Assembly: GCF_054482525.1 (NCBI RefSeq) | Contig: NZ_CM137006.1 | Strand: one strand, 5' to 3' | Length of the DNA: 64,000 nucleotides | Part shown: in pieces, positions 21,094-35,574 of the stretch | Layout of the letters: the number at the start of each line of letters is the position of its first letter | How positions within the stretch are numbered: the stretch's first letter is position 1 | Position numbers and translations under genes: made by a program | Notes under the pieces: model-generated | Told to the model about the DNA's origin: nothing | The model's input: the letters and a program-made list of their open reading frames with translations, nothing else | The model's database searches: none

Positions 21094-21765
21094 ATGCAGT
21101 ACCCGATTAACGAGATGTTCCAGACCCTGCAAGGTGAGGGTTACTTTACCGGCGTCCCCGCCATTTTTATTCGTTTACAGGGATGCCCGGTTGGCTGTGC
21201 CTGGTGCGACACCAAACACACCTGGGAAAAGCTTGAGGATCGGGAAGTTTCCCTTTTCAGCATTCTGGGTAAAACGAAAGAGAGTGATAAGTGGGGAGCA
21301 GCAAGCAGTGAAGACTTACTCGCAGTCATCGGTCGTCAGGGATACACCGCGCGTCACGTGGTGATTACGGGTGGTGAACCTTGTATTCATGATTTGCTGC
21401 CACTGACTGACCTGCTCGAAAAGAACGGTTTCAGTTGTCAGATAGAAACCAGCGGTACTCATGAAGTGCGTTGTACGCCGAATACCTGGGTCACCGTGTC
21501 GCCAAAGCTAAATATGCGTGGTGGTTATGAAGTATTGTCGCAAGCCCTGGAGCGAGCTAACGAAATTAAACACCCAGTTGGACGTGTACGTGATATCGAA
21601 GCACTGGATGAATTGCTTGCGACGCTGACCGATGATAAACCGCGAGTCATTGCACTGCAGCCGATTAGCCAAAAGGATGATGCCACACGTTTGTGCATTG
21701 AAACTTGCATTGCGCGTAACTGGCGTTTGTCGATGCAAACACATAAATATTTAAATATTGCCTGA
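21094..21765 (+). CDS. queE: 7-carboxy-7-deazaguanine synthase QueE (radical SAM)
   Basis: 223-aa ORF MQYPINEMFQTLQGEGYFTGVPAIFIRLQGCPVGCAWCDTKHTW... with the CxxxCxxC radical-SAM-like cluster. Confidence 0.93.
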   Translation: MQYPINEMFQTLQGEGYFTGVPAIFIRLQGCPVGCAWCDTKHTWEKLEDREVSLFSILGKTKESDKWGAASSEDLLAVIGRQGYTARHVVITGGEPCIHDLLPLTDLLEKNGFSCQIETSGTHEVRCTPNTWVTVSPKLNMRGGYEVLSQALERANEIKHPVGRVRDIEALDELLATLTDDKPRVIALQPISQKDDATRLCIETCIARNWRLSMQTHKYLNIA

Positions 21766-22019
21766 TTACACATTTATATGCGTTATAAATGGGTGGAACC
21801 TGTAAAGACTTCCACTCATTTATATTTTTTGTCGCCTCTGAAAACTCATCCATTTTGCCCATTCCGGACTAATCATTGTCATTCTCTACAAATTCTGTGG
21901 CGTTAATTTTTCTCTGGGGTGAAAATTATTGCGGTAAAGTTTGGTAGATTTTAGTCGGTATAGGATTACTTTAAATATTTAGCTTTTCAATCAATGAATT
22001 AAGTGCTCTTTAACATAAT

Positions 22020-22104
22020 GGATGTGTTGTTTGTGTGATACTGTAAAGTTGGTAGATTGTGACTGGCTTAAAAAATCATTAATTAATAATAGGTTATGTT
22101 TAGA
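22020..22104 (+). promoter_or_regulatory. AT-rich CRISPR leader immediately upstream of the first repeat
   Basis: ...ctggcttaaaaaatcattaattaataataggttatgtttaga directly abuts repeat 1; matches my recollection of the type I-E leader at the ygcE-queE CRISPR of E. coli. Confidence 0.7.
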
Positions 22105-22255
22105 GAGTTCCCCGCGCGAGCGGGGATAAACCGAAAACCACGACCTGGCGATCGGCGTGCTGGATGAGTTTCCCGCGCGAGCGGGGATAAACCGGATAGG
22201 TGTTACACATATGACCAGGCACTGGCGAGTTCCCCGCGTCAGCGGGGATAACCAT
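22105..22255 (+). CRISPR. Short type I-E CRISPR array: 3 repeats (third degenerate), 2 spacers of 32 bp
   Basis: 29-bp repeats gagttccccgcgcgagcggggataaaccg (22105-22133), gagtttcccgcgcgagcggggataaaccg (22166-22194), degenerate gagttccccgcgtcagcggggataaccat (22227-22255); spacers aaaaccacgacctggcgatcggcgtgctggat and gataggtgttacacatatgaccaggcactggc; no cas genes in the window. Confidence 0.85.
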
Positions 22256-22300
22256 TCAGGTATGTTCAGGCCGGGCAGTTTCCCGCCCGGCCTTCCTCAC

Positions 22301-23779
22301 TTACGCATTCGACCAGCTCTGGATCGAATCTTCATTCCCCAGCTCACCATGCATCACTTCATACGATTTTTTCAGGATCACATCAGTGTGCTTGGTTAGG
22401 TCTTTGAAAATGCCTTTATTCATCGCGTCGTAGCGTTTGGCATTGCTCTCAACAGGCATAAAGATATCTTTCACGCGAACCATTTTGTCGACAGCCGTTG
22501 CGTAATCCGGGTATAGCCCCAGACCTACCGCCGTATTAATCGCTGCCCCCAGACTTGCACAACCATTAATGGCGTTACGGCGTGCCGGAAGGTTGAACAC
22601 GTCGGCAAAAATCTGCATAAACAGATCGCTGTTCGAACCGCCGCCAGTAATGATCACATGCTTTGCAAAGTGATTCATTTCATTACACATATTGTCGTAA
22701 TTGTTCTTCAGCGTCAGCGCCACGCTTTCCAGTATCGAACGATATATCCATGCGTAATCCATGCTGGAATCAAAGCCGATCATAATCCCGCGTTTGTACG
22801 GTTCCCACGGATTGGTCAGCCAGTCCAGCACCGTCATCAGCCCATTACAGCCAGGTGGCACACTAGAGGCTTTCTTGTTGAGTAAATCTTCCGGTGAAAG
22901 ATCCTGCGCCCTGGCATCCTGAATTAACGACTCGCCTAACATGTCGCGTAGCCAGCTCACCGTCCACATGCCTTTGCGAATACCGTAACCTTCATACAGC
23001 AAGGTTTGCGGAATAGAAGACATAATCGGCCAGTACGCTACCGGATCTTTCGGCAGTGCTTTACCGTTCATCATCAGCGCGATGTAGGTGCCAAGAGAAA
23101 TCACCGCCGTTTCATCATCCAGTAATCCGGCTCCCAGAGCTTCTACCGGTTTATCACTGGTGGTACAAACAACCGGCAGCCCTGCTGGGAAATGTGTCGC
23201 CAGCGCGGCTTGAGGAGTGATATGCCCAAGAACAGTGCCCGGCATTTGCACATCAAACAGCATATGACGGGGGATATTAAACTTCTCCATGACTGCGGCA
23301 TCTTCACTCCATGCCCAGGTCTTATAATCCACCGGCCACTGACCAAAATAGTTGGCGATATTATCTTTAAACTCGCCGGTTAAGCGATGCGTCAGATAAC
23401 CTGAAAAAGAGGTGACATAGGCCACGTCAGGATTCGTATGTTCGTAAGGGCGTGTAACGCGTGCATCCTGCCAGCTGATCAACGGTGCAGCTGGCGTGCC
23501 ATCGGCTTTCAATAACGCACGGCAGCAACGGATGGATCCCAGACCAATACCGACAATATCGTCTTTATTCCCGGCAAACTGACTCATCAAATCGTGACCG
23601 GCAAAACATAATGATGCCCATAAATCGTCGTCAGGATGTTCTGCAGTATCGGCATCTGGCGTGTGCATCGGCTGTAATAAGCCTTTGCCTTCGCAAACCA
23701 CGTTACCTTCCAGATCGTACATCACCACTTTTGTGCTCTGACTTCCGCCATCAATCCCTATGATGTATTTTTTCGACAT
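22301..23779 (-). CDS. ygcE: FGGY-family carbohydrate kinase YgcE
   Basis: 492-aa ORF MSKKYIIGIDGGSQSTKVVMYDLEGNVVCEGKG..., FGGY kinase N-terminal signature. Confidence 0.88.
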   Translation of the reverse strand: MSKKYIIGIDGGSQSTKVVMYDLEGNVVCEGKGLLQPMHTPDADTAEHPDDDLWASLCFAGHDLMSQFAGNKDDIVGIGLGSIRCCRALLKADGTPAAPLISWQDARVTRPYEHTNPDVAYVTSFSGYLTHRLTGEFKDNIANYFGQWPVDYKTWAWSEDAAVMEKFNIPRHMLFDVQMPGTVLGHITPQAALATHFPAGLPVVCTTSDKPVEALGAGLLDDETAVISLGTYIALMMNGKALPKDPVAYWPIMSSIPQTLLYEGYGIRKGMWTVSWLRDMLGESLIQDARAQDLSPEDLLNKKASSVPPGCNGLMTVLDWLTNPWEPYKRGIMIGFDSSMDYAWIYRSILESVALTLKNNYDNMCNEMNHFAKHVIITGGGSNSDLFMQIFADVFNLPARRNAINGCASLGAAINTAVGLGLYPDYATAVDKMVRVKDIFMPVESNAKRYDAMNKGIFKDLTKHTDVILKKSYEVMHGELGNEDSIQSWSNA

Positions 23780-23805
23780 GATTTTTCTCCTGTAATTTTC
23801 TGGAC

Positions 23806-25083
23806 TTACTTGCTGCTAGCCATAGCAGGGGCGCTATCAGCAGTACGAATTTTTTGGAACAGCAAAAAGGTAAAGACGATCACCATGGCAAGCGCCGCCA
23901 TGCCCATCAGCCACATATTGCGGTAGGCTTCTGCTGCGGGCAGGGTGTCTTGCCAGTGGCCGATAATTGGGTAAACGAAGACATCCGGCAGGAATCCAAT
24001 CACCGAACAAATACCTACCGTGGTGCCCATAATGTAAGACGGTGTTCTCGCTTCGCCAGGGCAGGCCCAGTACAGCCCGCGTGAGGCGTAACAGGTGAAT
24101 CCCAGAAGTAAAATCAGACCAATCCCCATCGCGACCGATTGCGGGTTAGAGTTCGTGATGAGCAGGGCAGTTAACGCCAGCAGGCCGAGTACGGAAAGGA
24201 TTTGGATCACGCGGGTAGGGGATTTCACTTTGCTGTAAGTGGTGATAATGCCGCCAAGCGGACCGCACAGTGCGCGGAAGATTTTGTTGATCACAATCCC
24301 CATGTAGCTCGCCGCCACCAGCGACATACCGTACATTTCGGTCAGATAGTTGGTGGAGTAACTCAGAATGGCGTAGATGGTGAAGACACCAAAAATCACC
24401 ATGCTGCAATACCAGGTGGTGCTGATGCGCAAAACGGCCAGGATGTCGCTAAGCTGGAATGACTGTTTTTCTTCGTTATTGGTATTGCGTAGGTTGTTGT
24501 TATCGCTAACAAAAAACCAACACAAAATGCCCAGCAGAATGTAAACCACACTGTAGATGATAATGACCGTTTTCAGGCTGGCGCTGTCATCCGGTGCAAA
24601 GCGAGAAAAGACCCACATGGTAAACACCGCCAGCGACATTACACCGACGCCGCGCAGCCCTTCCATCCAGCCCATAATTTTCCCTTGCTCGCTATGATCG
24701 CCCAGCAACGATGCGGCTTTAATCGACACCGACCACAGCATTAAAATCGTCGTTATCGCAAAGGCGACCTGAATACAGAGCATTACCCACAGCGGTGGAT
24801 ATGTTGCCATTAACAGACCCAGTAATCCGGTAATGATCATCGCGGAAGTAATCATTTTGCGGTGTGAAAATTTATCGGCAATAACGCCGCTGGGGGCATA
24901 AAGAATAATAGCCGCAATACCAAAGGTACTCATTATTAAACCTATCTCGGTATTGCTGAATCCCATAAATTTTGCCATGGGAATTTGATAAATATAACGT
25001 AAATAAGCCAGGTCGAAACTAACGCCGCCGCTAAAACTAATTATCGCGAGGGTTATCCAACGGCGATATGAGTTGTGTTGCAT
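23806..25083 (-). CDS. yqcE: MFS-type transporter YqcE
   Basis: 425-aa polytopic membrane ORF MQHNSYRRWITLAIISFSGGVSFDLAYLRYIYQIPMAKFMGF... Confidence 0.85.
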   Translation of the reverse strand: MQHNSYRRWITLAIISFSGGVSFDLAYLRYIYQIPMAKFMGFSNTEIGLIMSTFGIAAIILYAPSGVIADKFSHRKMITSAMIITGLLGLLMATYPPLWVMLCIQVAFAITTILMLWSVSIKAASLLGDHSEQGKIMGWMEGLRGVGVMSLAVFTMWVFSRFAPDDSASLKTVIIIYSVVYILLGILCWFFVSDNNNLRNTNNEEKQSFQLSDILAVLRISTTWYCSMVIFGVFTIYAILSYSTNYLTEMYGMSLVAASYMGIVINKIFRALCGPLGGIITTYSKVKSPTRVIQILSVLGLLALTALLITNSNPQSVAMGIGLILLLGFTCYASRGLYWACPGEARTPSYIMGTTVGICSVIGFLPDVFVYPIIGHWQDTLPAAEAYRNMWLMGMAALAMVIVFTFLLFQKIRTADSAPAMASSK

Positions 25084-25261
25084 ATCGTATTCCCATTTGT
25101 AATAGACAAAAAAAAGAGAAAAGTAAGCCGCCCTTTCAGGTGGATTACTTTTCTCAGGTCTCTAGTAATTGCAATAAGAAATAACATGGAAAGCAGAGGT
25201 GTTGTGTGAGAGTAATCACGCTTCTGCTTTTTAAAATTATTTGACAATTCGAATATCACAC

Positions 25262-25277
25262 TGTGATTACGATCACA
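25262..25277. promoter_or_regulatory. CRP-type box TGTGA-N6-TCACA in the yqcE/ygcW divergent intergenic region
   Basis: tgtgattacgatcaca has both half-sites perfect; a TTGACA hexamer lies 7 bp upstream (25250-25255). Confidence 0.45.
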
Positions 25278-25330
25278 TTAGCGATTATGCCCTTATGATA
25301 AAAATTATCTCCAGTTACCAGAGATAATGA

Positions 25331-25377
25331 GAAAGGTAACTTCCCTCTCGCGGGGGAAGTTACCTTTCTTTTTTTTT
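25331..25377 (+). terminator. Perfect 15-bp stem hairpin followed by T9, 25 nt upstream of the ygcW start codon
   Basis: gaaaggtaacttccc-tctcgcgg-gggaagttacctttc followed by ttttttttt; classical intrinsic-terminator architecture on the + strand. Confidence 0.55.
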
Positions 25378-25401
25378 GCCTTACGGAAATTGGAGCTAAC
25401 T

Positions 25402-26187
25402 ATGTCAATCGAATCTCTCAATGCGTTCTCAATGGATTTTTTCTCCCTGAAAGGTAAAACCGCAATTGTTACCGGCGGGAATAGCGGTTTAGGCCAGGCA
25501 TTTGCCATGGCGCTGGCCAAAGCAGGCGCAAATATCTTTATTCCAAGCTTCGTTAAAGATAACGGCGAAACAAAGGGAATGATTGAAAAACAGGGTGTTG
25601 AAGTTGATTTTATGCAGGTGGATATCACCGCAAAAGGCGCGCCGCAGAAGATAATCGCCGCCTGTTGCGAACGTTTCGGTACCGTCGATATTCTGGTTAA
25701 CAATGCCGGTATTTGTAAGCTGAATAAGGTGCTGGACTTCGGTCGTGCCGACTGGGATCCAATGATTGATGTGAACCTGACCGCCGCATTCGAGTTAAGC
25801 TATGAAGCTGCAAAAATTATGATCCCGCAGAAAAGCGGTAAAATCATTAATATCTGTTCATTGTTCTCTTACTTAGGTGGACAATGGTCACCTGCTTATT
25901 CTGCCACTAAACATGCTCTTGCCGTATTCACCAAAGCCTATTGCGATGAATTAGGTCAATATAATATTCAGGTGAATGGTATTGCTCCGGGATATTACGC
26001 TACCGATATCACTCTGGCGACCCGTAGTAATCCAGAAACTAACCAGCGCGTTCTTGATCATATTCCGGCAAACCGTTGGGGCGATACTCAGGATTTAATG
26101 GGCGCAGCCGTATTCCTCGCAAGTCCGGCATCGAATTATGTCAACGGACATTTATTAGTGGTTGATGGCGGTTATTTAGTGCGCTAA
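25402..26187 (+). CDS. ygcW: Short-chain dehydrogenase/reductase YgcW
   Basis: ORF from MSIESLNAFSMDFFSLKGKTAIVTGGNSGLGQAFA... (Rossmann TGxxxGxG); the upstream in-frame extension in the track spans the terminator hairpin and is unlikely to be coding. Confidence 0.85.
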   Translation: MSIESLNAFSMDFFSLKGKTAIVTGGNSGLGQAFAMALAKAGANIFIPSFVKDNGETKGMIEKQGVEVDFMQVDITAKGAPQKIIAACCERFGTVDILVNNAGICKLNKVLDFGRADWDPMIDVNLTAAFELSYEAAKIMIPQKSGKIINICSLFSYLGGQWSPAYSATKHALAVFTKAYCDELGQYNIQVNGIAPGYYATDITLATRSNPETNQRVLDHIPANRWGDTQDLMGAAVFLASPASNYVNGHLLVVDGGYLVR

Positions 26188-26256
26188 TCCATAACGGTGG
26201 TTTCTGTTTTCTCTTATTAATGATTATTCCATTTTTATTATCAGGAAGGAATTACT

Positions 26257-27711
26257 ATGTCTTTATCTCGCGCAGCGATTGTCGACCAGCTAAAGGAAAT
26301 TGTTGGTGCAGATCGCGTAATTACCGATGAAACAGTATTAAAGAAAAACAGTATTGACCGTTTTCGTAAATTTCCGGATATTCATGGTATTTATACTTTG
26401 CCGATTCCGGCAGCGGTCGTAAAACTCGGTTCCACAGAACAAGTCTCCCGTGTGCTGAATTTTATGAATGCGCACAAAATTAACGGTGTGCCGCGTACCG
26501 GCGCTTCCGCCACTGAAGGTGGGCTGGAAACCGTTGTGGAAAACTCGGTGGTGCTCGACGGCTCCGCCATGAATCAAATCATTAATATTGATATTGAGAA
26601 TATGCAGGCCACGGCGCAATGTGGCGTTCCGCTGGAAGTGCTGGAAAACGCGTTGCGTGAAAAAGGTTACACCACGGGGCATTCTCCGCAGTCAAAGCCG
26701 CTGGCGCAGATGGGCGGCCTGGTAGCAACCCGCAGTATCGGGCAGTTCTCCACACTCTACGGCGCAATCGAAGATATGGTCGTTGGTCTGGAAGCAGTAT
26801 TGGCTGATGGCACCGTGACACGCATTAAAAACGTGCCACGTCGCGCGGCTGGCCCGGACATTCGTCACATCATCATCGGCAACGAAGGTGCATTGTGCTA
26901 TATCACTGAAGTAACAGTGAAAATCTTTAAATTCACCCCAGAAAACAACCTCTTCTACGGCTATATCCTGGAAGACATGAAAACCGGCTTCAACATCCTG
27001 CGTGAAATCATGGTGGAAGGGTATCGTCCGTCGATCGCTCGTTTGTATGACGCTGAAGATGGCACCCAACACTTCACCCATTTTGCCGATGGTAAATGTG
27101 TGCTGATCTTTATGGCTGAAGGTAACCCTCGCATTGCGAAGGCGACAGGCGAAGGGATTGCTGAAATCGTGGCACGTTACCCGCAATGCCAGCGAGTGGA
27201 CAGCAAGCTGATCGAAACCTGGTTTAATCACCTGAACTGGGGGCCGGATAAAGTGGCCGCTGAACGTGTGCAGATCCTCAAAACCGGCAACATGGGCTTT
27301 ACCACCGAAGTGTCCGGCTGCTGGAGCTGCATCCACGAAATCTACGAAAGCGTTATTAACCGTATTCGTACCGAGTTCCCGCACGCCGACGACATCACCA
27401 TGCTGGGCGGTCACTCCTCTCACAGCTACCAGAACGGCACCAACATGTACTTCGTTTACGACTACAACGTTGTTGACTGTAAGCCGGAAGAGGAAATCGA
27501 CAAGTACCACAATCCGCTCAACAAAATCATCTGCGAAGAAACCATTCGCCTCGGCGGTTCGATGGTGCACCACCACGGTATTGGTAAACATCGCGTTCAC
27601 TGGAGCAAACTGGAACACGGCAGCGCGTGGACGTTGCTGGAAGGTCTGAAAAAACAGTTCGATCCTAACGGCATTATGAATACGGGTACTATCTATCCGA
27701 TTGAAAAATAA
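26257..27711 (+). CDS. ygcU: FAD-linked oxidase YgcU (alkyl-DHAP synthase-like)
   Basis: 484-aa ORF MSLSRAAIVDQLKEIVGADRVITDETVLKKNSIDRF... with FAD-binding PCMH-type domain. Confidence 0.88.
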   Translation: MSLSRAAIVDQLKEIVGADRVITDETVLKKNSIDRFRKFPDIHGIYTLPIPAAVVKLGSTEQVSRVLNFMNAHKINGVPRTGASATEGGLETVVENSVVLDGSAMNQIINIDIENMQATAQCGVPLEVLENALREKGYTTGHSPQSKPLAQMGGLVATRSIGQFSTLYGAIEDMVVGLEAVLADGTVTRIKNVPRRAAGPDIRHIIIGNEGALCYITEVTVKIFKFTPENNLFYGYILEDMKTGFNILREIMVEGYRPSIARLYDAEDGTQHFTHFADGKCVLIFMAEGNPRIAKATGEGIAEIVARYPQCQRVDSKLIETWFNHLNWGPDKVAAERVQILKTGNMGFTTEVSGCWSCIHEIYESVINRIRTEFPHADDITMLGGHSSHSYQNGTNMYFVYDYNVVDCKPEEEIDKYHNPLNKIICEETIRLGGSMVHHHGIGKHRVHWSKLEHGSAWTLLEGLKKQFDPNGIMNTGTIYPIEK

Positions 27712-27803
27712 TATGTCAGGCAGCGTTCCGCTATGAGGGGCGTTGCCTTTTCGGCTTCTCAGGCGAGAAGCCGTTCTTATTACCGGACAATGAAGGGGTA
27801 AAA

Positions 27804-29141
27804 ATGAACACTTCACCGGTGCGAATGGATGATTTACCGCTTAACCGTTTTCACTGCCGCATTGCTGCGCTCACTTTCGGCGCGCACCTGACCGACGGTT
27901 ATGTTCTCGGCGTCATTGGTTACGCCATTATTCAGCTTACACCCGCCATGCAACTGACGCCGTTTATGGCGGGAATGATTGGCGGCTCGGCGCTACTTGG
28001 CCTGTTTATCGGTAGCCTGGTTTTGGGGTGGATCTCCGACCATATTGGTCGGCAAAAAATCTTCACCTTCAGCTTTTTGCTGATTACGCTCGCTTCGTTC
28101 TTACAATTTTTTGCCACCACGCCAGAGCATCTTATTGGACTGCGCATTTTGATCGGCATTGGTCTGGGAGGCGATTACTCAGTAGGTCACACTTTGCTGG
28201 CTGAATTTTCTCCGCGCCGCCATCGCGGTATTTTGCTGGGCGCATTCAGCGTGGTGTGGACCGTAGGCTATGTGCTGGCAAGTATTGCCGGACATCACTT
28301 TATTAGCGAAAGCCCGGAGGCCTGGCGCTGGCTGCTGGCATCGGCAGCTCTGCCCGCATTGTTGATTACGTTATTACGCTGGGGAACGCCAGAATCGCCA
28401 CGCTGGCTACTGCGCCAGGGGCGTTTTGCAGAAGCTCACGCTATCGTGCATCGCTATTTTGGTCCCCATGTTTTACTGGGCGATGAAGTGGCAACGGCGA
28501 CCCATAAACACATCAAAACCTTGTTCTCTTCGCGCTACTGGCGGCGCACAGCGTTTAACAGCGTCTTCTTTGTCTGCCTCGTAATCCCATGGTTTGTGAT
28601 TTATACCTGGCTGCCAACTATCGCCCAAACTATTGGTCTGGAAGATGCGCTGACCGCTAGCCTGATGCTTAATGCGTTGTTAATTGTGGGCGCGCTGCTG
28701 GGATTAGTTCTGACGCACCTGCTGGCACATCGCAAGTTTTTGCTGGGAAGTTTTTTGCTGCTGGCGGCAACGCTGGTAGTAATGGCCTGTTTGCCTTCCG
28801 GCAGTTCATTAACGCTGCTGCTTTTTGTTCTCTTCAGCACCACCATTTCGGCAGTCAGTAATCTGGTGGGCATTTTGCCTGCGGAAAGTTTTCCTACTGA
28901 CATTCGCTCGCTGGGCGTCGGTTTTGCCACCGCCATGAGTCGGTTGGGCGCGGCAGTAAGTACGGGCCTGCTGCCGTGGGTGCTGGCGCAGTGGGGAATG
29001 CAAGTCACCTTATTGCTCCTGGCGGCAGTGTTGTTGGTTGGTTTTGTCGTGACCTGGCTATGGGCACCAGAAACCAAAGCACTCCCGCTGGTGGCGGCGG
29101 GAAATGTTGGAGGTGCGAATGAACATTCTGTTAGCGTTTAA
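27804..29141 (+). CDS. ygcS: MFS transporter YgcS
   Basis: 445-aa polytopic membrane ORF MNTSPVRMDDLPLNRFHCRIAALTFGAHLTDGYVLGVIGYA... Confidence 0.85.
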   Translation: MNTSPVRMDDLPLNRFHCRIAALTFGAHLTDGYVLGVIGYAIIQLTPAMQLTPFMAGMIGGSALLGLFIGSLVLGWISDHIGRQKIFTFSFLLITLASFLQFFATTPEHLIGLRILIGIGLGGDYSVGHTLLAEFSPRRHRGILLGAFSVVWTVGYVLASIAGHHFISESPEAWRWLLASAALPALLITLLRWGTPESPRWLLRQGRFAEAHAIVHRYFGPHVLLGDEVATATHKHIKTLFSSRYWRRTAFNSVFFVCLVIPWFVIYTWLPTIAQTIGLEDALTASLMLNALLIVGALLGLVLTHLLAHRKFLLGSFLLLAATLVVMACLPSGSSLTLLLFVLFSTTISAVSNLVGILPAESFPTDIRSLGVGFATAMSRLGAAVSTGLLPWVLAQWGMQVTLLLLAAVLLVGFVVTWLWAPETKALPLVAAGNVGGANEHSVSV

Positions 29142-29898
29142 AGCCGAACCGGATGCCGGAATGCTGGCGGAAAAAGAGTGGCAGGCGGCGGCTCAGGGTA
29201 ATAGCGGACCGGATGTTTCGCTTCTGCGAAGTTTACTCGGTGCTGATGAACAGGCTGCCGCCGCGCTGCTGTTGACGCAGAGAAAAAACGGTACGTCGAT
29301 GTCTTTAACCGCGTTGAGCATGGGGGATGAACGGGCGTTGCACTGGCTGCGCTATCTCATGGCTCTTGGGTTTGAGGAAGCTGTATTACTGGAGACGGCG
29401 GCAGATCTGCGCTTTGCGCCGGAATTTGTCGCTCGCCATATTGCCGAATGGCAGCGTCAGAATCCGCTGGATCTGATAATTACCGGCTGCCAAAGCAGCG
29501 AAGGGCAGAATGGGCAAACGCCATTTTTGCTGGCGGAAATGCTGGGCTGGCCCTGCTTCACCCAGGTGGAGCGTTTTACTCTCGAAGCGCCGTTTATCAC
29601 CCTCGAACAGCGTACTGAAAACGGGCTGCGCTGTTGCCGGGTTCGCTTGCCTGCGGTGATTGCCGTGCGTCAGTGCGGTGAAGTGGCCTTGCCAGTACCG
29701 GGAATGCGCCAGCGAATGGCGGCGGGGAAAGCAGAAATTATCCGTAAAACTGTTGCTGCCGAATTGCCAGCGATGCTGTGTCTGCAACTGGCAAGAGCAG
29801 AGCAACAACGCGGAGCGACGCTGATTGATGGGCAAACGGTAGCAGAAAAAGCGCAAAAGCTATGGCAGGACTATTTACGTCAAAGGATGCAGCCATGA
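29119..29898 (+). CDS. ygcR: Electron-transfer-flavoprotein beta-subunit-like protein YgcR
   Basis: ORF from MNILLAFKAEPDAGMLAEKEWQAAAQGN... (259 aa); overlaps the ygcS end and ygcQ start, suggesting translational coupling. Confidence 0.82.
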   Translation: MNILLAFKAEPDAGMLAEKEWQAAAQGNSGPDVSLLRSLLGADEQAAAALLLTQRKNGTSMSLTALSMGDERALHWLRYLMALGFEEAVLLETAADLRFAPEFVARHIAEWQRQNPLDLIITGCQSSEGQNGQTPFLLAEMLGWPCFTQVERFTLEAPFITLEQRTENGLRCCRVRLPAVIAVRQCGEVALPVPGMRQRMAAGKAEIIRKTVAAELPAMLCLQLARAEQQRGATLIDGQTVAEKAQKLWQDYLRQRMQP

Positions 29899-30755
29899 AT
29901 ATCGCAATTGTGACAATAAATCAGGAGAATGCCGCAATAGCGAGCTGGCAGGCGGCGCAGGATTTCAGCGGTTGTACCCTGGCGCACTGGAAGATTGAAC
30001 CTCAGCCCGCTGTGGCGGAACAGGTGCTGGATGCGCTGGTGGAACAGTGGCAGCGAACGCCTGCGGACGTTGTTCTCTTTCCGCCGGGAACGTTTGGCGA
30101 TGAACTGTCGACCCGGCTGGCCTGGCGTTTACATGGTGCAAGCATCTGCCAGGTGACTTCGTTAGATATTTCAACCGTAAGCGTGCGCAAATCCCACTGG
30201 GGAAATGCGCTAACGGCGACGCTGCAAACAGAAAAACGCCCGCTATGCCTTTCCCTTGCCCGCCAGGCGGGAGCAGTGAAAAACGCCACGTTGCCCTCTG
30301 GTATGCAGCAACTGAACATTGTCCCAGGTGCGCTTCCCGACTGGCTGGTTAGCATAGAAAACCTGAAAAATGTTACCCGCGACTCATTAGCTGAAGCCAG
30401 ACGGGTGCTGGTGGTGGGGCAGGGCGGAGAGGCAGATAACCAGGAAATCGCTATGCTGGCAGAAAAGCTGGGAGCCGAAGTGGGCTACAGTCGGGCGCGA
30501 GTAATGAACGGTGGTGTTGATGCCGAAAAAGTGATTGGTATTTCCGGACATTTGCTGGCACCTGAGGTGTGTATTGTTGTTGGCGCTTCCGGCGCAGCAG
30601 CATTAATGGCGGGCGTACGCAATAGCAAGTTTGTGGTGGCGATTAATCATGACGCCAGCGCGGCGGTATTTTCACAGGCAGATGTTGGCGTGGTTGATGA
30701 CTGGAAAGCGGTGCTGGAGGCACTGGTGACAACCATTCACGCAGATTGCCAATAA
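29895..30755 (+). CDS. ygcQ: Electron-transfer-flavoprotein alpha-subunit-like protein YgcQ
   Basis: ORF from MNIAIVTINQENAAIASWQAAQDF... (286 aa). Confidence 0.82.
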   Translation: MNIAIVTINQENAAIASWQAAQDFSGCTLAHWKIEPQPAVAEQVLDALVEQWQRTPADVVLFPPGTFGDELSTRLAWRLHGASICQVTSLDISTVSVRKSHWGNALTATLQTEKRPLCLSLARQAGAVKNATLPSGMQQLNIVPGALPDWLVSIENLKNVTRDSLAEARRVLVVGQGGEADNQEIAMLAEKLGAEVGYSRARVMNGGVDAEKVIGISGHLLAPEVCIVVGASGAAALMAGVRNSKFVVAINHDASAAVFSQADVGVVDDWKAVLEALVTTIHADCQ

Positions 30756-30760
30756 CTTGC

Positions 30761-30866
30761 TGCCGGATGATCCTGCCTACGGTTCTGGCCTGGGGACTTG
30801 TAAGCCTGATAAGACGCGTCAAGCGTCGCATCAGGCGCTGAATGTCGGATGTGGCGTGCAGCCTAC
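30761..30866. repeat. REP/BIME-like palindromic units between convergent ygcQ and ygcP
   Basis: tgccggatgatcctgcctacgg ... gcctgataagacgcgtcaagcgtcgcatcaggc ... gtcggatgtggcgtgcagcctac. Confidence 0.6.
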
Positions 30867-30901
30867 AAATCACACAAATTCAATTCGTTACGATTATCCC
30901 G

Positions 30902-31477
30902 TCAAAGCAATTTTTTCGCTAGCGTCCAGACCCCGGTATTTGTGGTGGAAAGCGCCACGACACCTGCGTTAATCGCATTACGCGCATCTTCTTCATCGCA
31001 CACCAGCCCGCCGGCAATCAGCGGTTGGCGGATTTTCTCCGTCACCCAGCCCAGCACTTTAGGCATACAGCCTGGCAGGATCTCAATACAATCCGGATTC
31101 GATTGCGCAACTTGCTTATCAATGTTGTGAAACGAAATCGAATCAACAATAAACAGGCGATGAATACAGAAAAAACCTTCCGCTCTTGCCGCTTTCAACA
31201 TTGAGGCTTTGGTACTGATAATGCCGTCCGCCTCAGTCACCAGTTTCAAAAACTGAATCACCACTTCTTTATTTGACGCGCCTTCCAGCAAATCAACATG
31301 AATAAAAGCATATTTTCCGGCATTTTTAATCTTTTTAACGATTTGACTAATGGTGCAGATATTGCCGTACAACACGGAAATAAACTGGCATTCAGAGTCG
31401 ATTGCCAGTTGCAGGCTGGCATTATCTTTAACGGCAGCAATCACCGGATTCTGGCGGAGCAGGTGTAAGAGGGGCAT
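30902..31477 (-). CDS. ygcP: GlpP-like glycerol-3-phosphate-responsive antiterminator family protein YgcP
   Basis: 191-aa ORF MPLLHLLRQNPVIAAVKDNASLQLAIDSECQFISVLYGNICTI... Confidence 0.82.
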   Translation of the reverse strand: MPLLHLLRQNPVIAAVKDNASLQLAIDSECQFISVLYGNICTISQIVKKIKNAGKYAFIHVDLLEGASNKEVVIQFLKLVTEADGIISTKASMLKAARAEGFFCIHRLFIVDSISFHNIDKQVAQSNPDCIEILPGCMPKVLGWVTEKIRQPLIAGGLVCDEEDARNAINAGVVALSTTNTGVWTLAKKLL

Positions 31478-31493
31478 AAATTATCCTTATTAT

Positions 31494-31754
31494 TTATCCA
31501 AAGCGGTAGGTGATGCCGAATCCGGAAGGCGGATAGTGCCACTGTTGTAGCGTTTTTTCATCGCACAGCAAACGGCAGGTGCCGCACTCCAGACAATTAC
31601 GATAATCAACGTGAAAATCACCTTCCGGTGTGAGCGAAAAAAGACCAGCCGGACAAGCGTTAATCAACTGTTGTGCCGTCTGGCGCTCAACGGAGTCAGC
31701 CGGAACAATGTGCGGCGCATCGGCAACGCGCCAGAGATTACGGGCTACAGACAT
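31494..31754 (-). CDS. ygcO: Ferredoxin-like protein YgcO (FixX-like)
   Basis: ORF from MSVARNLWRVADAPHIVPADS... (86 aa) with cysteine motif CLECGTCRLLC; start chosen to abut ygcN. Confidence 0.78.
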   Translation of the reverse strand: MSVARNLWRVADAPHIVPADSVERQTAQQLINACPAGLFSLTPEGDFHVDYRNCLECGTCRLLCDEKTLQQWHYPPSGFGITYRFG

Positions 31755-33016
31755 CGCAGACTCCTGATAACATCGCCCGCCAGATGCCACAGGCCGTGAC
31801 GACGTAAATGACGCCAGAATAACTGGCGCAGCGGTGGAACAGGTTTATCACCCTGATCCCATAAATCGCGGGAAATATCCTGCATTAACGCAGGCCACGC
31901 ACGGTACCATCCAGGGCGTTGCAAAAGCGCCGGAACATGCTGATAACGTTGTAGAACATCCCATAGCAGGCTGCGCTCGACGTTGTGATGATAAAGCGCA
32001 AACAGATTTTGCGGCTCGCGGTGCTGGCAGGCGCTTATCAGCGTTTGTGCCGCCGCCTGCGCGCCAGTTAGCGCCATATCCATGCCGCGCACGGAAATTC
32101 CGGTATTGACGCAACTGCGCAACGCATCGCCCACCAGCAGCCAGCCGTTACCGGCGTATTGCATCGGCATACTGTGTAAGCCACCTTCTGGAACCAGATG
32201 CGCACCATACTCCAGTGATTCCGTGTTTTTGATAAGCGGGCGCACTGCCGGATGCGTTTTAAAGCGAGCCAGCAGCTCGCTTGCCGGAACACGACTTTGC
32301 GTAAGTGAAGAGAGCGGGCAAACAATCCCTAACGAGAGCGTTTGTTGATTAGTATAAAGAAATGCGCCGCCGGGTAAGTCATCACAGATTCCGCCGCTGA
32401 ACAGCAACGCTGCGCCTTCGTTATTCTCCAGATGAAAACGTTCTTCAATAGCGGATGTTTCCAGCGCCAGCACTTCTTTGATCCCCAACGCCATCGCTTC
32501 GCCAGCAGGACGAGTCACTAACCCGTGACGCTCAGCCAGGACGCTGTTGGCACCTTCTGCCAGCACCACATAACGGGCGCGGAGAATATCGTCACCACAA
32601 ATGACACCACACACCCTGCCGTTTTCTTCATACAGCGCATCCACCGTCGCACCAGGGATGCATTCGACACCTTCTTTTTCGGCTTCGGCAACCAGCCATG
32701 GATCGAACCGTGCACGTAATACGCTCCAGGATTCACCGCCGGGCTGTAAGCTGGAAAACGTCGTTGCGCCATCCGGCGTTAACAGGGAAAGGCTTTCGTG
32801 AGTGATGCGTCGTTCAAGAGGCGCGCTCAGATGAAATTGCGGGAGGAGTTCCGCGAGCGCATGGGTGTATAAACGCCCGCCGGAAAGATTTTTGCTGCCG
32901 GGAATTTCAGCGCGTTCCAGTAACAGAACGGACAAACCTGCCCGCGCGCAGCGTAAAGCACAAGCGGTGCCTGCTATACCCGCACCAATAATAATAATGT
33001 CGCAGTCGTCTTCCAT
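31745..33016 (-). CDS. ygcN: FAD-dependent oxidoreductase YgcN (FixC/ETF-QO-like)
   Basis: ORF from MEDDCDIIIIGAGIAGTACALRCARAGLSVLLLER... (423 aa), FAD-binding GxGxxG. Confidence 0.85.
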   Translation of the reverse strand: MEDDCDIIIIGAGIAGTACALRCARAGLSVLLLERAEIPGSKNLSGGRLYTHALAELLPQFHLSAPLERRITHESLSLLTPDGATTFSSLQPGGESWSVLRARFDPWLVAEAEKEGVECIPGATVDALYEENGRVCGVICGDDILRARYVVLAEGANSVLAERHGLVTRPAGEAMALGIKEVLALETSAIEERFHLENNEGAALLFSGGICDDLPGGAFLYTNQQTLSLGIVCPLSSLTQSRVPASELLARFKTHPAVRPLIKNTESLEYGAHLVPEGGLHSMPMQYAGNGWLLVGDALRSCVNTGISVRGMDMALTGAQAAAQTLISACQHREPQNLFALYHHNVERSLLWDVLQRYQHVPALLQRPGWYRAWPALMQDISRDLWDQGDKPVPPLRQLFWRHLRRHGLWHLAGDVIRSLRCL

Positions 33017-33093
33017 GTCATGCCCCAGATATCCAGAACACAACACCCTAACATGGCGTTACTTAAGGGAAATTGACCGCCAACACACTCTTA

Positions 33094-33459
33094 TCATTCG
33101 CCGCGATAGATACAGCCTGCAGTACAGGTTTCTTTCACCATCACCGCACTTAACAGCGGCACAACGGGTTTAACTTGATCCCAAATCCATTTTGCTAAAA
33201 CTTCGCTGGTTGGGTTTTCCAGACCTGGAATATCATTGAGATAATAGTGATCGAGGCGATCATAGGTTGGTTTAAATGCCGCTTTCAGTTCAGCGAAATC
33301 GATAATCCAGCCCGTATGCGGATCGACTTCCCCGGTAATTTCCAGTCGCACCATAAAGGAATGCCCGTGCAGGCGACCACATTTATGCCCTTCCGGGACG
33401 TGTGGTAAGCGGTGAGCGGCTTCGAAGGTGAAATCTTTAAATAACGTGGTGGACATCAT
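33094..33459 (-). CDS. queD: 6-carboxy-5,6,7,8-tetrahydropterin synthase QueD
   Basis: ORF from [35 protein letters not shown]... (121 aa). Confidence 0.9.
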
Positions 33460-33774
33460 AATTTCTCTACATGACGATAAAACCGCCGTAGAGTACCGGA
33501 AAGGCTGTTTTTTCGCATTATCTAAAACGACTTTGTTGCGCAAAATCGCTGATTTATCTTATTGATGGGCAATATTCATTTGTTTTTCATTGGGTTGGTT
33601 AATCTATTTTGTTGTTAAAGACTATTGCTAAAACAGGTTAGTCGATTTGGTTATTAGTTATCGCTATCCCGTCTTTAATCCACACCGTTCACCCCGTTAA
33701 CCTTACCTTCTCTTCTGTTTTATGGGCGCTGACAGGGCGCAGAAACAGCTTTGCTTACTGGAACATAACGACGC

Positions 33775-35574
33775 ATGACGACACAGGTCCCACCTTCCGC
33801 GTTGCTTCCGTTGAACCCGGAGCAACTGGCACGCCTTCAGGCGGCCACGACCGATTTAACTCCCACCCAGCTTGCCTGGGTTTCTGGCTATTTCTGGGGC
33901 GTACTCAACCAGCAGCCTGCAGCGCTTGCAGCGACGCCAGCGCCCGCCGCAGAAATGCCGGGTATAACTATTATCTCCGCTTCGCAAACCGGCAATGCGC
34001 GCCGGGTTGCTGAAGCATTACGCGATGATTTATTAGCGGCAAAACTGAACGTTAAGCTGGTGAACGCGGGCGACTATAAATTCAAACAAATCGCCAGCGA
34101 AAAACTGCTCATCGTGGTGACGTCAACGCAAGGGGAAGGGGAACCGCCGGAAGAAGCCGTCGCGCTGCATAAGTTCCTGTTCTCCAAAAAAGCGCCAAAG
34201 CTGGAAAACACTGCATTTGCCGTGTTTAGCCTCGGCGATAGCTCTTATGAATTTTTCTGCCAGTCCGGGAAAGATTTTGACAGCAAGCTGGCGGAACTGG
34301 GCGGTGAACGCCTGCTCGACCGTGTCGATGCCGACGTTGAATACCAGGCTGCTGCCAGCGAGTGGCGCGCCCGCGTGGTTGATGTTCTGAAGTCCCGTGC
34401 GCCTGTCGCGGCACCTTCGCAATCCGTCGCTACTGGCGCGGTAAATGAAATCCACACCAGCCCGTACAGCAAAGACGCGCCGCTGGTGGCGAGCCTTTCG
34501 GTTAACCAGAAAATTACCGGGCGTAACTCTGAAAAAGACGTTCGCCATATCGAAATTGACTTAGGTGACTCTGGCCTGCGTTATCAGCCGGGTGACGCGC
34601 TGGGCATCTGGTATCAGAACGATCCGGCACTGGTGAAAGAACTTGTCGAACTGCTGTGGCTGAAAGGCGATGAACCTGTCACCGTTGAGGGCAAAACGCT
34701 GACCCTGAGCGAAGCGCTCCAGTGGCACTTTGAACTCACCGTCAACACCGCGAATATTGTTGAGAACTACGCCACGCTTACCCGCAGCGAAACGCTGCTG
34801 CCGCTGGTGGGCGATAAAGCGAAGTTACAGCATTACGCCGCGACCACGCCGATTGTTGACATGGTGCGTTTCTCTCCGGCGCAACTGGATGCCGAAGCGC
34901 TGATTAACCTGCTGCGCCCGCTGACCCCGCGCCTGTATTCCATCGCCTCCTCGCAGGCGGAAGTCGAGAACGAAGTACATGTCACCGTTGGTGTGGTGCG
35001 TTACGACGTGGAAGGCCGAGCCCGTGCCGGTGGTGCCTCCAGCTTCCTCGCGGATCGCGTGGAAGAAGAGGGCGAAGTCCGCGTCTTTATCGAACATAAC
35101 GATAACTTCCGCCTGCCAGCCAACCCGGAAACCCCGGTGATTATGATTGGCCCAGGCACCGGCATCGCGCCGTTCCGCGCCTTTATGCAGCAACGCGCCG
35201 CTGACGAAGCGCCAGGTAAAAACTGGCTGTTCTTTGGCAACCCGCACTTTACGGAAGATTTCCTCTACCAGGTGGAGTGGCAGCGCTACGTGAAAGAAGG
35301 CGTATTGAGCCGCATCGATCTTGCCTGGTCGCGCGACCAAAAAGAAAAAGTTTATGTACAAGACAAACTGCGCGAACAGGGCGCGGAGCTGTGGCGCTGG
35401 ATCAATGACGGTGCCCACATTTATGTCTGCGGCGACGCTAATCGCATGGCGAAAGACGTTGAGCAGGCACTTCTGGAAGTGATTGCCGAATTTGGTGGCA
35501 TGGACACCGAAGCGGCGGATGAATTTTTAAGTGAGCTGCGCGTAGAGCGCCGTTATCAGCGAGATGTCTACTAA
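33775..35574 (+). CDS. cysJ: Sulfite reductase [NADPH] flavoprotein alpha subunit CysJ
   Basis: 599-aa ORF with flavodoxin, FAD and NADPH domains. Confidence 0.95.

Follow-up and report, generated by a model that had tools for sequence, protein, structure and literature searches.

The window analysed here, a stretch of 64,000 nucleotides from contig NZ_CM137006.1 of NCBI RefSeq assembly GCF_054482525.1, contains at 22301-33046 the ygcN-ygcE cluster of E. coli, whose ten genes encode a kinase (YgcE), two transporters (YqcE and YgcS), a short-chain dehydrogenase/reductase (SDR; YgcW), an FAD-linked enzyme (YgcU), two subunits of an electron transfer flavoprotein (ETF; YgcR and YgcQ), a GlpP-family protein (YgcP), a ferredoxin (YgcO) and a flavoprotein (YgcN). 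It seems that the cluster is an inducible catabolic module with two layers of control and with enzyme chemistry similar to that of alkyl-dihydroxyacetonephosphate synthase (alkyl-DHAP synthase, ADPS). Taken as a whole, this explanation appears moderately plausible. Its regulatory part, in which CRP acts on the initiation of transcription and YgcP-type antitermination acts at two leader elements, is considered probable, and the outline of the chemistry is put forward tentatively. The two leader elements, which are unannotated and occur across phyla, the ADPS-like reading of YgcU and the narrower substrate class are new here; the perfect CRP box and the binding of CRP to it had already been documented.

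The spacer between yqcE and ygcW is 318 bp long and contains, in each direction, a long hairpin with a U-run shortly before the start codon. In the ygcW leader, the intrinsic terminator is located at 25329-25378 (+ strand) and has a 19-bp stem and the loop UCGC, with the hairpin extending to 25369 and being followed by the U-run; it ends 24 nt before the ygcW ATG. The terminator of the yqcE leader, located at 25108-25155 (− strand), has the arms GAGAAAAGUAAUCCACC...GGCGGCUUACUUUUCUC, with a hairpin at 25155-25116 followed by U8. In both leaders, an upstream element of 6-7 nt copies the start of the terminator 3′ arm and therefore can pair with the 5′ arm (GGUAACU or AGUAAU), and this pairing encloses the conserved loop AGAG-N-GAGAAA. 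The predicted antiterminator of the ygcW leader (25313-25341, + strand) thus consists of AGUUACC, the loop AGAGAUAAUGAGAAA and GGUAACU, and that of the yqcE leader (25143-25170, − strand) of AAUUACU (25170-25164), the loop AGAGACCUGAGAAA and AGUAAUC (25149-25143), the last of these segments doubling as the 5′ arm of the terminator.

The ygcW-leader terminator is the strongest terminator-like site in the region 21700-33800 (fold z = -6.9). The terminator folds have energies of -33.8 kcal/mol (ygcW leader) and -20.7 kcal/mol (yqcE leader), and the minimum-energy fold of the nascent RNA is the antiterminator hairpin, with -6.7 kcal/mol for ygcW and -1.4 kcal/mol for yqcE. Since the antiterminator is weak compared with the very stable terminator, termination is expected to be the default, and read-through would need a stabilising factor. 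The two leaders are identical at 61 of 102 positions, and the composite motif is found in the window at these two sites only, with 0 expected by chance. The 67-nt leader was detected in 5063 of 5426 E. coli genomes, with two sites per genome and none on plasmids; in 4465 genomes it is 100% identical, and no annotated feature lies under it in E. coli genomes. The search against the 4227 models of Rfam found no family that matches the leaders, the rliE match over the ygcW leader being at chance level (26 bits against a gathering score of 90, E 0.96).

The distribution of the element was followed in loci encoding YgcP relatives, which were taken from 65 species and supplemented by protein look-ups (designated below by L numbers where needed). 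A strict regular expression finds two sites in each Enterobacterales locus that holds the spacer, always the ygcW and yqcE leaders, and the 102 matches of this motif are accompanied by 0 elsewhere in about 1.2 Mb. The covariance model, built from 55 distinct Enterobacterales leaders and the leader of Thalassobacillus (L060), has matches directly upstream of the cluster operons of Listeria sensu lato, Bacillus, Thalassobacillus, Vibrio and Photobacterium, and also upstream of those of Clostridium, Sporomusa, Anaeromicrobium, Fodinisporobacter and locus L073. The best match in each of the later loci L067-L073 has an E-value from 1e-4 to 2e-13. The range of the element therefore covers Enterobacterales, Vibrio, Bacilli, Clostridia and Negativicutes, and in every case a YgcP-type gene is adjacent. 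A metagenome scan with the leader motif returned five Yersiniaceae-type loci with no new gene content.

Pairing was counted in an alignment of 42 diverse leaders obtained by anchored extraction, as a 3-nt insertion in some of them displaces the upstream element. The antiterminator helix is paired in 92.2% of cells, with two-sided changes in 6 of 7 pairs and 21 compensatory cells; the outer terminator helix is paired in 93.3% of cells, with two-sided changes in 3 of 11 pairs and 14 compensatory cells. Shuffled controls reached these values in 0 of 500 cases for either helix, and a slid register gave at most 55% and at most 64% of paired cells, respectively. The variants of the antiterminator helix include GUUACU:AGUAAC, AUUACU:AGUAAU, GUUACC:GGUAAC, GUUGCC:GGCGAC, CUACC:GGUAG and GUUGCU:AGCGAC. 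In Citrobacter youngae (L010) and Klebsiella spallanzanii (L012), an insert of about 120 bp resembling an ERIC/IRU-type repeat separates the element of the yqcE leader from the yqcE start codon, the leader motif being retained further upstream. In Limnobaculum eriocheiris (L032, 13867-13970), the leaders seem to have merged into one bidirectional terminator flanked by A9 and T9, the upstream antiterminator elements being missing; a deletion may have left the cluster permanently off here.

The preliminary description of this DNA had placed a perfect CRP-type box between yqcE and ygcW, and the box is indeed found at 25262-25277 (TGTGATTACGATCACA, TGTGA-N6-TCACA). A second CRP-like box, missed in that description, is located at 25205-25220 (CGTGATTACTCTCACA, or CGTGATTACUCUCACA on the − strand); it has one mismatch to TGTGA-N6-TCACA and is kept in Enterobacteriaceae. 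Judging by the sequence and by the conservation of TGnTAAAAA and, across species, of TGnTATTTC, the putative extended −10 elements are TGaTAAAAA at 25296-25304 (+ strand) for ygcW and TGtTATTTC at 25178-25186 (− strand) for yqcE. With a ygcW start at about 25311, the perfect box (centre 25269.5) would lie at −41.5; with a yqcE start at about 25171, the second box (centre 25212.5) would lie at −41.5 as well. Both promoters look like class II CRP promoters, the second box being a candidate site by its sequence and spacing, and both transcripts would start 1-3 nt ahead of the antiterminator element. Both CRP sites and both leaders are kept across Enterobacteriaceae. The perfect box was predicted computationally in 2007 (PMC1794230), a CRP ChIP-seq peak was reported at this site in enterotoxigenic E. 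coli (PMC4287617), Footprint-seq gave a Kd of about 1.7 nM for CRP there (PMC12871828), and yqcE-ygcE is included in a list of Crp-activated genes (PMC8085971). These publications back the catabolite control that had been proposed from the box.

The candidate for the stabilising factor is YgcP (ygcP, 30902-31477, − strand; 191 aa, G3P_antiterm). PF04309 covers residues 12-184 of its 191 residues (profile positions 1-173 of 173) with an E-value of 1.4e-62, the comparison with the structure of Listeria GlpP (PDB 3kts) gives 8.5e-28, and the C-terminal IAGGL...STTN aligns with the matching segment of GlpP. By analogy with phosphate-binding barrels, this segment hints that the ligand of YgcP may also be a phosphate ester; the natural candidate would be the product of the YgcE kinase. 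YgcP is about 30% identical to Listeria GlpP and 55-59% identical to cluster-linked proteins of Firmicutes, which sets it in a clade of its own, one that accompanies the cluster. The leader element and a GlpP-family gene occur together in all of the more than 70 loci examined.

In B. subtilis, GlpP with glycerol-3-phosphate (G3P) antiterminates the leaders of glpD, glpFK and glpTQ (PMC9604022). The glp loci of S. aureus and of clostridia served as canonical comparators. In the genuine glp loci, the upstream element, NGAG, GAGA, the 5′ arm and the terminator follow one another as in the ygc leaders. In Lachnoclostridium and Faecalibacterium (L064 and L065), glpP is followed by DAO-BFD G3P dehydrogenase genes; the S. 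aureus locus has the order glpP-glpF-glpK-glpD, and the layout is present at the glpF and glpD leaders. As the canonical glp leaders have the same layout, YgcP is very probably a true antiterminator, and both leaders are its probable targets. The assignment of YgcP to the GlpP-like antiterminator family in the preliminary description holds, although its likely targets were overlooked there; no publication on YgcP targets was found in the searched literature.

Like the GlpP system of B. subtilis, the ygc system includes a PF04309 protein and controlled operons with a leader terminator right after the promoter, and its probable inducer is the product of a kinase inside its own regulon. The neighbours of YgcP, unlike those of GlpP, are SDR, ADPS-like, FGGY and ETF genes and not GlpF, GlpK and GlpD; YgcP also occurs in Gammaproteobacteria, and its ligand is presumably not G3P; the ygc leader sequence is also much more conserved than that of the glp leaders, which the model scores weakly. 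The antitermination of the bgl operon by BglG/LicT at RAT sites is comparable in that a CRP-dependent catabolic operon there has a terminator whose 5′ arm is shared with a weak hairpin that a protein stabilises. It differs in the protein family (CAT-PRD against a PF04309 TIM barrel) and in the signal, which is phosphorylation by the phosphotransferase system rather than a presumed small phospho-ligand. In Listeria monocytogenes (L075, 6501-6573), a canonical glpP is followed by pflB-pflA and not by glp genes, and the best match of the leader model, which is non-significant, falls in the glpP-pflB spacer.

The genes that travel with the leader element form a core of ygcP, ygcW, ygcU and ygcE with a transporter gene, which are found together from Enterobacterales to Firmicutes. 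Identity to the E. coli proteins is 75-77% for YgcW of Listeria and Bacillus, and it is 61-67% for YgcU and 53-59% for YgcE; YgcU reaches 73% in Sporomusa and Desulfobacterota; such high cross-phylum identities indicate horizontal spread. YqcE-like MFS genes also occur in the clusters of Vibrio, Photobacterium, Listeria and L073. The genes ygcRQ and ygcNO are absent from the versions of Serratia, Pantoea, Erwinia and Listeria, and FixCX-like ygcNO was seen only in Enterobacterales. EtfB-EtfA genes directly follow the YgcU gene in eight lineages, namely Vibrio, Photobacterium, Clostridium, Sporomusa, Anaeromicrobium, Bacillus, L073 and L083 (L061, L067-L071, L073 and L083); in L082 the contig ends after EtfB. 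The clusters of anaerobes contain an extra oxidase, often with its own EtfBA, and one such EtfA has a ferredoxin domain. Between genera, ygcR, ygcQ, ygcN and ygcO diverge far faster than ygcP, ygcW and ygcU, YgcQ being 40-60% identical where YgcP is about 90% identical; in the comparison of loci L002-L055 with the window genes, for example, there are cases in which YgcQ and YgcO are each 43% and YgcP is 90% identical. Hypervariability of the ETF genes within E. coli was considered and rejected, as the window is evenly 96-97% identical to K-12 and the effect appears between species. With 53-59% identity, the E. coli YgcE resembles the kinases of Firmicutes more than the Serratia and Pantoea ones (42-48%), which suggests that there are two kinase lineages or that one kinase has been replaced. 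In Serratia (L042, 4338-9896) and Pantoea (L048, 4461-9976), ygcS heads a separate operon with genes of a Fae-like protein (formaldehyde-activating enzyme family), an aldo-keto reductase and an aldehyde dehydrogenase, which may point to an aldehyde/formaldehyde link to the pathway; the gene divergent to this operon in L042 encodes a LysR-family regulator.

YgcU (ygcU, 26257-27711, + strand; 484 aa, FAD_binding_4 and FAD-oxidase_C) is of the alkyl-DHAP-synthase type. A profile of 14 YgcU homologues aligns with the guinea-pig and Dictyostelium alkyl-DHAP synthases (ADPS/AGPS, EC 2.5.1.26; PDB 4bby and 2uuu) over both the FAD and the cap domains, whereas the alignment of glycolate oxidase, LctD, LDHD and D2HGDH to YgcU is limited to the FAD domain. 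ADPS Arg419, marked by the mutant 4bc7 (SIRLMD to SIHLMD), aligns with the invariant R262 of YgcU; Tyr578, marked by the mutant 4bca (ACIYF to ACIFF), aligns with the invariant Y398; and the HHH loop 615-617 (SHHHGVGK) aligns with the invariant VHHHGIGK (H438-440). The GlcD-like second oxidase of the same clusters has EHGVGK, lacks the Arg and the Tyr, and is 18-21% identical to YgcU. YgcU falls outside the GlcD/D-lactate dehydrogenase group, with a score of 144.5 for GlcD TIGR00387 (cut-off 567.9) and HHHGIG rather than EHGxG. YgcU does not have the N-terminal extension of about 130-170 residues present in eukaryotic ADPS, the alignment beginning at about chain residue 136-180; because of this and of the catabolic, non-lipid-biosynthetic context, it is classed as ADPS-like and not as ADPS.

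ADPS proper makes alkyl-DHAP from acyl-DHAP and a fatty alcohol in the synthesis of ether lipids. Its catalytic residues serve to remove the C1 proton from the DHAP moiety, to build a flavin-N5 adduct and to release the C1 substituent. Their presence in YgcU suggests a C1-substituted DHAP-like intermediate as the substrate of this enzyme. For the YgcE family profile, the nearest match is LsrK (1e-54), glycerol kinases come next (1e-40), and pentulose and hexonate kinases are further away, which fits the phosphorylation of a primary hydroxyl group of a small vicinal diol. ETF-coupled oxidation of a polyol or sugar acid had been proposed for the cluster in the preliminary description; a catabolic or redox module is retained, but the proposal was too generic, as YgcU is ADPS-like and not a GlcD-type 2-hydroxyacid dehydrogenase. 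ADPS needs no external electron carrier, whereas the catabolic operon of YgcU also encodes a kinase, an SDR and a dedicated ETF. The E. coli fixABCX (carnitine-linked) and ydiQRST genes resemble ygc in combining EtfB, EtfA, a FixC-like flavoprotein and a FixX-like ferredoxin, and LctBCD of Acetobacterium woodii (PDB 7qh2) resembles it in having a FAD_binding_4 enzyme encoded beside its own EtfBA; the second, LctD-like oxidase of the anaerobe clusters, with its ferredoxin-domain EtfA, is similar to LctBCD. The ygc proteins differ from these systems in scoring under the FixA, FixB, FixC and FixX cut-offs and in having an ADPS-like partner, not an acyl-CoA or lactate dehydrogenase.

Clues to the substrate come from the transporters and adjacent genes of other phyla. 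An onium-type carrier is encoded in every non-enterobacterial, non-Listeria cluster whose neighbourhood was retrieved, except L082 and L083: BCCT genes are present in seven loci (L060, L061 and L067-L071) and OpuAC-type ABC systems in two (L072 and L073). In Sporomusa and Anaeromicrobium (L069 and L071), the BCCT genes come immediately after the leader element and therefore belong to the same regulon. In Desulfobacula (L082), genes of MttB-family, corrinoid-protein and pterin-binding methyltransferase types lie a few genes upstream of the cluster SDR gene, and in the Desulfobacterota-like L083 the gene just before the SDR gene is one of the MttB family. Demethylation by non-pyrrolysine MttB proteins has as its substrates quaternary amines such as glycine betaine, proline betaine, carnitine and gamma-butyrobetaine. 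Catabolism through such proteins (MtgB, MtpB, MtcB and MtyB) with BCCT or Opu uptake is comparable to the ygc system in that MttB, corrinoid-protein, pterin-binding and BCCT/OpuAC genes adjoin the ygc-type core or share its regulon in several phyla, and together the BCCT/OpuAC carriers and the adjoining MttB genes point to a compound that bears a quaternary amine. For E. coli itself, such a link is doubtful. The subfamily typing of the BCCT and OpuAC proteins reached no equivalog. In Vibrio hannami (L067, 12752-13507), a gene of the TauE/SafE family (sulfite-exporter type) adjoins the BCCT gene, with three SnoaL-like genes and a sugar ABC system nearby; a sulfonate-type leaving group is one example of how the TauE/SafE gene might be relevant.

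Our best guess, which is speculation, is that the substrate is a compound with a glycerol/DHAP backbone and an onium substituent. With such a compound, the GlpP-like sensor, the GlpK/LsrK-like kinase, the ADPS-like enzyme and the transporters would all fit together. The favoured mechanism can be outlined as follows. Two divergent class II CRP promoters would drive yqcE-ygcE and ygcW-ygcU(-ygcS-ygcR-ygcQ), and each transcript would open with a leader of about 65 nt in which a weak hairpin and a stable terminator compete for the same 5′ arm. The terminator would prevail by default over the antiterminator hairpin, which has the stem RUUACY:RGUAAY and the conserved loop AGAG...GAGAAA. YgcP with a phosphorylated intermediate, most likely the YgcE product, would bind and stabilise the antiterminator, as GlpP does with G3P in B. 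subtilis; we infer this switching step from the anatomy of the leaders, their covariation and their co-occurrence with YgcP. YqcE and/or YgcS would import a small diol-bearing compound, the SDR YgcW would oxidise its secondary alcohol, and YgcE would phosphorylate the primary alcohol, giving a C1-substituted DHAP-like intermediate. YgcU may then remove or exchange the C1 substituent by flavin-N5 chemistry, and its flavin may exchange electrons with the dedicated ETF YgcRQ, from which, in E. coli, they would pass to the quinone pool through the FixCX-like YgcNO. Judging from the transporters and neighbours in other phyla, the substituent or the entire substrate might carry a quaternary-ammonium group. 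The most specific version, in which a glycerol-backbone compound with a quaternary-ammonium substituent (for instance a deacylated betaine-lipid head group or a substrate of the trimethylammonio-propanediol type) is turned into a C1-substituted DHAP by phosphorylation and oxidation and then cleaved by ADPS-like chemistry with ETF, under a new, cross-phylum class of leader RNA bound by YgcP-type proteins, is regarded as rather unlikely.

A number of observations weigh against this explanation. The covariation was counted on related sequences, and the leaders were trimmed at the best-complementary upstream 6-mer, so that the register was picked by complementarity; in the control for trimming, however, a median of 1.1% of shuffles equalled the real leader, with 87% of leaders below 5%, and the MAFFT alignment of the leaders was built without structural information. 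The glp leaders of S. aureus are the two best sites of the model in their locus, but their scores are non-significant (E 0.5-0.9), and the family-wide link to GlpP therefore rests on layout and not on statistics. Both −41.5 spacings depend on transcription starts predicted from sequence, and no experimental report of YgcP binding RNA or a ligand was found in the searched literature. As to the chemistry, the ADPS reaction involves no net redox change, which leaves the need for an ETF unexplained, and the clusters of Listeria, Serratia and Pantoea have no ETF genes. The cluster BCCT proteins form a divergent clade with 275-321 bits against the generic family cut-off of 407.55, and the E. coli cluster itself, unlike MttB-type catabolism, has no BCCT, OpuAC or MttB genes. 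We know of no quaternary-amine pathway that employs an FGGY kinase or an ADPS-like enzyme. In addition, YgcW is nearest to KduD and gluconate-5-dehydrogenases and YqcE to organic-anion carriers, and both suit a sugar acid.

The latter two relationships speak for a scheme along the lines of the preliminary description. In it, the MFS transporters take up an ordinary polyol or sugar acid, for instance a hexonate or tetritol, the SDR oxidises it and the FGGY kinase phosphorylates it, and a 2-hydroxy group is then oxidised by a GlcD/LctD-type YgcU that passes electrons to ETF, FixCX and quinone. YgcW scores 345.2 bits with the KduD model PRK06935 (cut-off 369) and 269.9 with TIGR01832 (338.85), near to both cut-offs yet under them, with gluconate 5-dehydrogenases next, and the best subfamily of YqcE is the D-galactonate transporter type. 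Among enzymes with the fold of YgcU, the dehydrogenases of D-lactate and D-2-hydroxyglutarate are known to partner with ETF, LctD is among the PDB matches, and in anaerobes the cluster comes with a genuine GlcD/LctD-like oxidase that has an ETF of its own. However, YgcU has the ADPS-specific Arg, Tyr and HHH, which the GlcD-like paralogue does not, and GlcD, LctD and LDHD align with it over the FAD domain only. The BCCT/OpuAC genes of nine non-enterobacterial loci and the MttB genes adjoining in two are also difficult to accommodate, and no version of the cluster contains an aldolase, dehydratase or isomerase gene that would complete a sugar pathway. This scheme is regarded as unlikely. The use of glycerol or G3P by a second G3P-responsive route, with YgcP sensing G3P, YgcE being a glycerol-type kinase and YgcU-ETF-FixCX an alternative G3P:quinone dehydrogenase, would agree with the RefSeq name of YgcP (glycerol-3-phosphate responsive antiterminator), with LsrK and then glycerol kinases being the nearest solved kinases to YgcE, and with the binding of a triose-phosphate moiety by ADPS-like enzymes. 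It is very unlikely in view of the separate clade of YgcP (about 30% identity to Listeria GlpP against 55-59% to cluster-linked proteins), the GlpK equivalog score of YgcE (101 against a cut-off of 590), the presence of GlpF, GlpK, GlpD or DAO-BFD dehydrogenases in genuine glp loci instead, and the SDR, BCCT/OpuAC and MttB associations, which have no role in glycerol use.

As regards the control of the cluster, the leaders might work without YgcP, as metabolite riboswitches or as constitutive attenuators or insulators, YgcP being, for example, an enzyme-like TIM-barrel protein. In its favour, the searched literature contains no RNA-binding report for YgcP, and the loop AGAG...GAGAAA, which has no Rfam match, could in principle bind a small molecule, but a hairpin of about 30 nt with a loop of 14-20 nt is small for an aptamer, a GlpP-family gene is present in all of the more than 70 loci, the same layout precedes GlpP-controlled glp genes, and GlpP is an established RNA-binding antiterminator (PMC9604022). 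Leaders that act independently of YgcP are accordingly seen as quite improbable. It is hardly probable, finally, that the cluster has no present function in E. coli and is the cryptic, decaying relic of a module gained by horizontal transfer. The ten open reading frames are intact, with no frameshifts relative to K-12 and an even identity of about 96-97%, about 93% of complete E. coli genomes have the cluster, 4465 genomes share a 100% identical 67-nt leader, and both CRP sites and both leaders are kept across Enterobacteriaceae; against this stand the absence of a phenotype or substrate in the searched literature, the much faster divergence of the ETF and FixCX genes than of the core between genera, and the high cross-phylum identities pointing to horizontal transfer.

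The explanation favoured here, an inducible module under CRP and YgcP with ADPS-like chemistry, concerns a cluster that ranks among the larger intact ones in E. coli K-12 still without a known function. It turns a list of family names into testable items, namely two RNA switches, the regulator YgcP, the catalytic residues of YgcU and a substrate class. The leader element is missing from Rfam and from RefSeq annotation despite its presence in about 93% of E. coli genomes. If the proposals are true, GlpP-type riboregulation would be described for Proteobacteria for the first time, the bacterial homologues of the ether-lipid enzyme ADPS would have a catabolic role, and a new microbial route in methylamine metabolism would be possible; the quaternary-amine link, if true, would bear on turnover of the choline, carnitine and betaine-lipid type in the gut and in marine sediments.

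A full-text search with the ten ygc/yqcE gene names as whole words, in which subscription journals were poorly covered, found no substrate or pathway, and nothing joining FGGY, BCCT, GlpP, ADPS and ETF was found in the searched full texts. No cluster protein reached an NCBIfam equivalog cut-off either, YgcW with the KduD model coming nearest, so that the earlier statement that the substrate has not been established still stands. Deletion of ygcU did not relieve the repression of the type III secretion system by D-serine in enterohaemorrhagic E. coli (PMC13012123), and overexpression of YgcS increased the yield of nicotinamide mononucleotide, which is indirect with respect to YgcS function (PMC8601175). 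The 'YgcO' of a PTS-Ntr review was rejected as a reference to this gene, being a typographical error for YcgO.

The ten open reading frames have the order and strands given in the preliminary description, and the RefSeq annotation of E. coli PCN033, to which the cluster region is 100% identical, likewise lists ten contiguous genes, placed between queE and queD, with ygcE and yqcE on the − strand, ygcW, ygcU, ygcS, ygcR and ygcQ on the + strand, and ygcP, ygcO and ygcN on the − strand. The extent assigned earlier stands except for its end at 33046, which corresponds to a GTG start of the longest open reading frame; the annotated start of ygcN is at 33016. The protein families named there are each backed by Pfam. 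At least 80% of the cluster query is covered in 5060 of 5426 complete E. coli genomes (about 93%), and divergence from K-12 is even, with about 96-97% identity over the window and 0 frameshifts.

The gene ygcE (22301-23779, − strand), the second gene of the yqcE-ygcE operon, encodes a 492-aa FGGY-family kinase (FGGY_N and FGGY_C) that is under every equivalog cut-off of the specific FGGY kinases XylB, LsrK, GlpK, GntK, AraB, FucK and RhaB; its best NCBIfam scores are 143 for XylB (cut-off 380), 141 for LsrK (528) and 101 for GlpK (590). The product of yqcE (23806-25083, − strand) is an MFS_1 transporter of 425 aa with a distant match to the D-galactonate (anion:cation symporter) subfamily. YgcW (25402-26187, + strand; 261 aa) is an SDR oxidoreductase (adh_short), and YgcS (27804-29141, + strand; 445 aa; Sugar_tr/MFS_1) is a distant homologue of NiaP with below-cut-off matches to aromatic-acid, sugar-porter and organic-cation MFS subfamilies. 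YgcR (29119-29898, + strand; 259 aa) and YgcQ (29895-30755, + strand; 286 aa) are ETF beta-like and alpha-like subunits with the Pfam domains ETF and ETF_alpha, respectively, and are far under the cut-offs of all NCBIfam ETF, FixA and FixB models. YgcO (31494-31754, − strand; 86 aa) is a FixX-like 4Fe-4S ferredoxin that scores 76.4 with FixX (cut-off 166). YgcN (31745-33016, − strand; 423 aa from the annotated ATG) is a FixC-like flavoprotein, an FAD oxidoreductase with an ETF-QO ubiquinone-binding domain (PF21162 ETFQO_UQ-bd, 30.3 against a threshold of 27.7), and scores 367.5 bits with FixC (cut-off 610). By their sequences, YgcN and YgcO are assigned as paralogues, not orthologues, of FixC and FixX.

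Between ygcU and ygcS, a GC-rich hairpin of 9 bp is located at 27752-27773 (+ strand; CGGCUUCUC-AGGC-GAGAAGCCG) and has a weak U tail; it is a candidate for a partial internal terminator or a processing/stability element that splits the core from ygcS-ygcR-ygcQ. The region 30756-30901 between the convergent ygcQ and ygcP contains REP/BIME-like palindromes (GCCTGATAAGACGCGTCAAGCGTCGCATCAGGC), and the Rfam family naRNA4 has a sub-threshold match at 30804-30836 (29 bits against a gathering score of 59.5). The gap that separates queE from ygcE contains a short CRISPR array of type I-E with two 32-nt spacers at 22105-22255 (+ strand), the repeat GAGTTCCCCGCGCGAGCGGGGATAAACCG occurring at 22105 and 22166 (with one mismatch) and a degenerate third copy near 22227. 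This array sits at the known ygcE-ygcF 'CRISPR2' position. The identity to K-12 falls to 66%, with gaps, at 22000-22299, because K-12 holds about 0.8 kb of extra DNA there.

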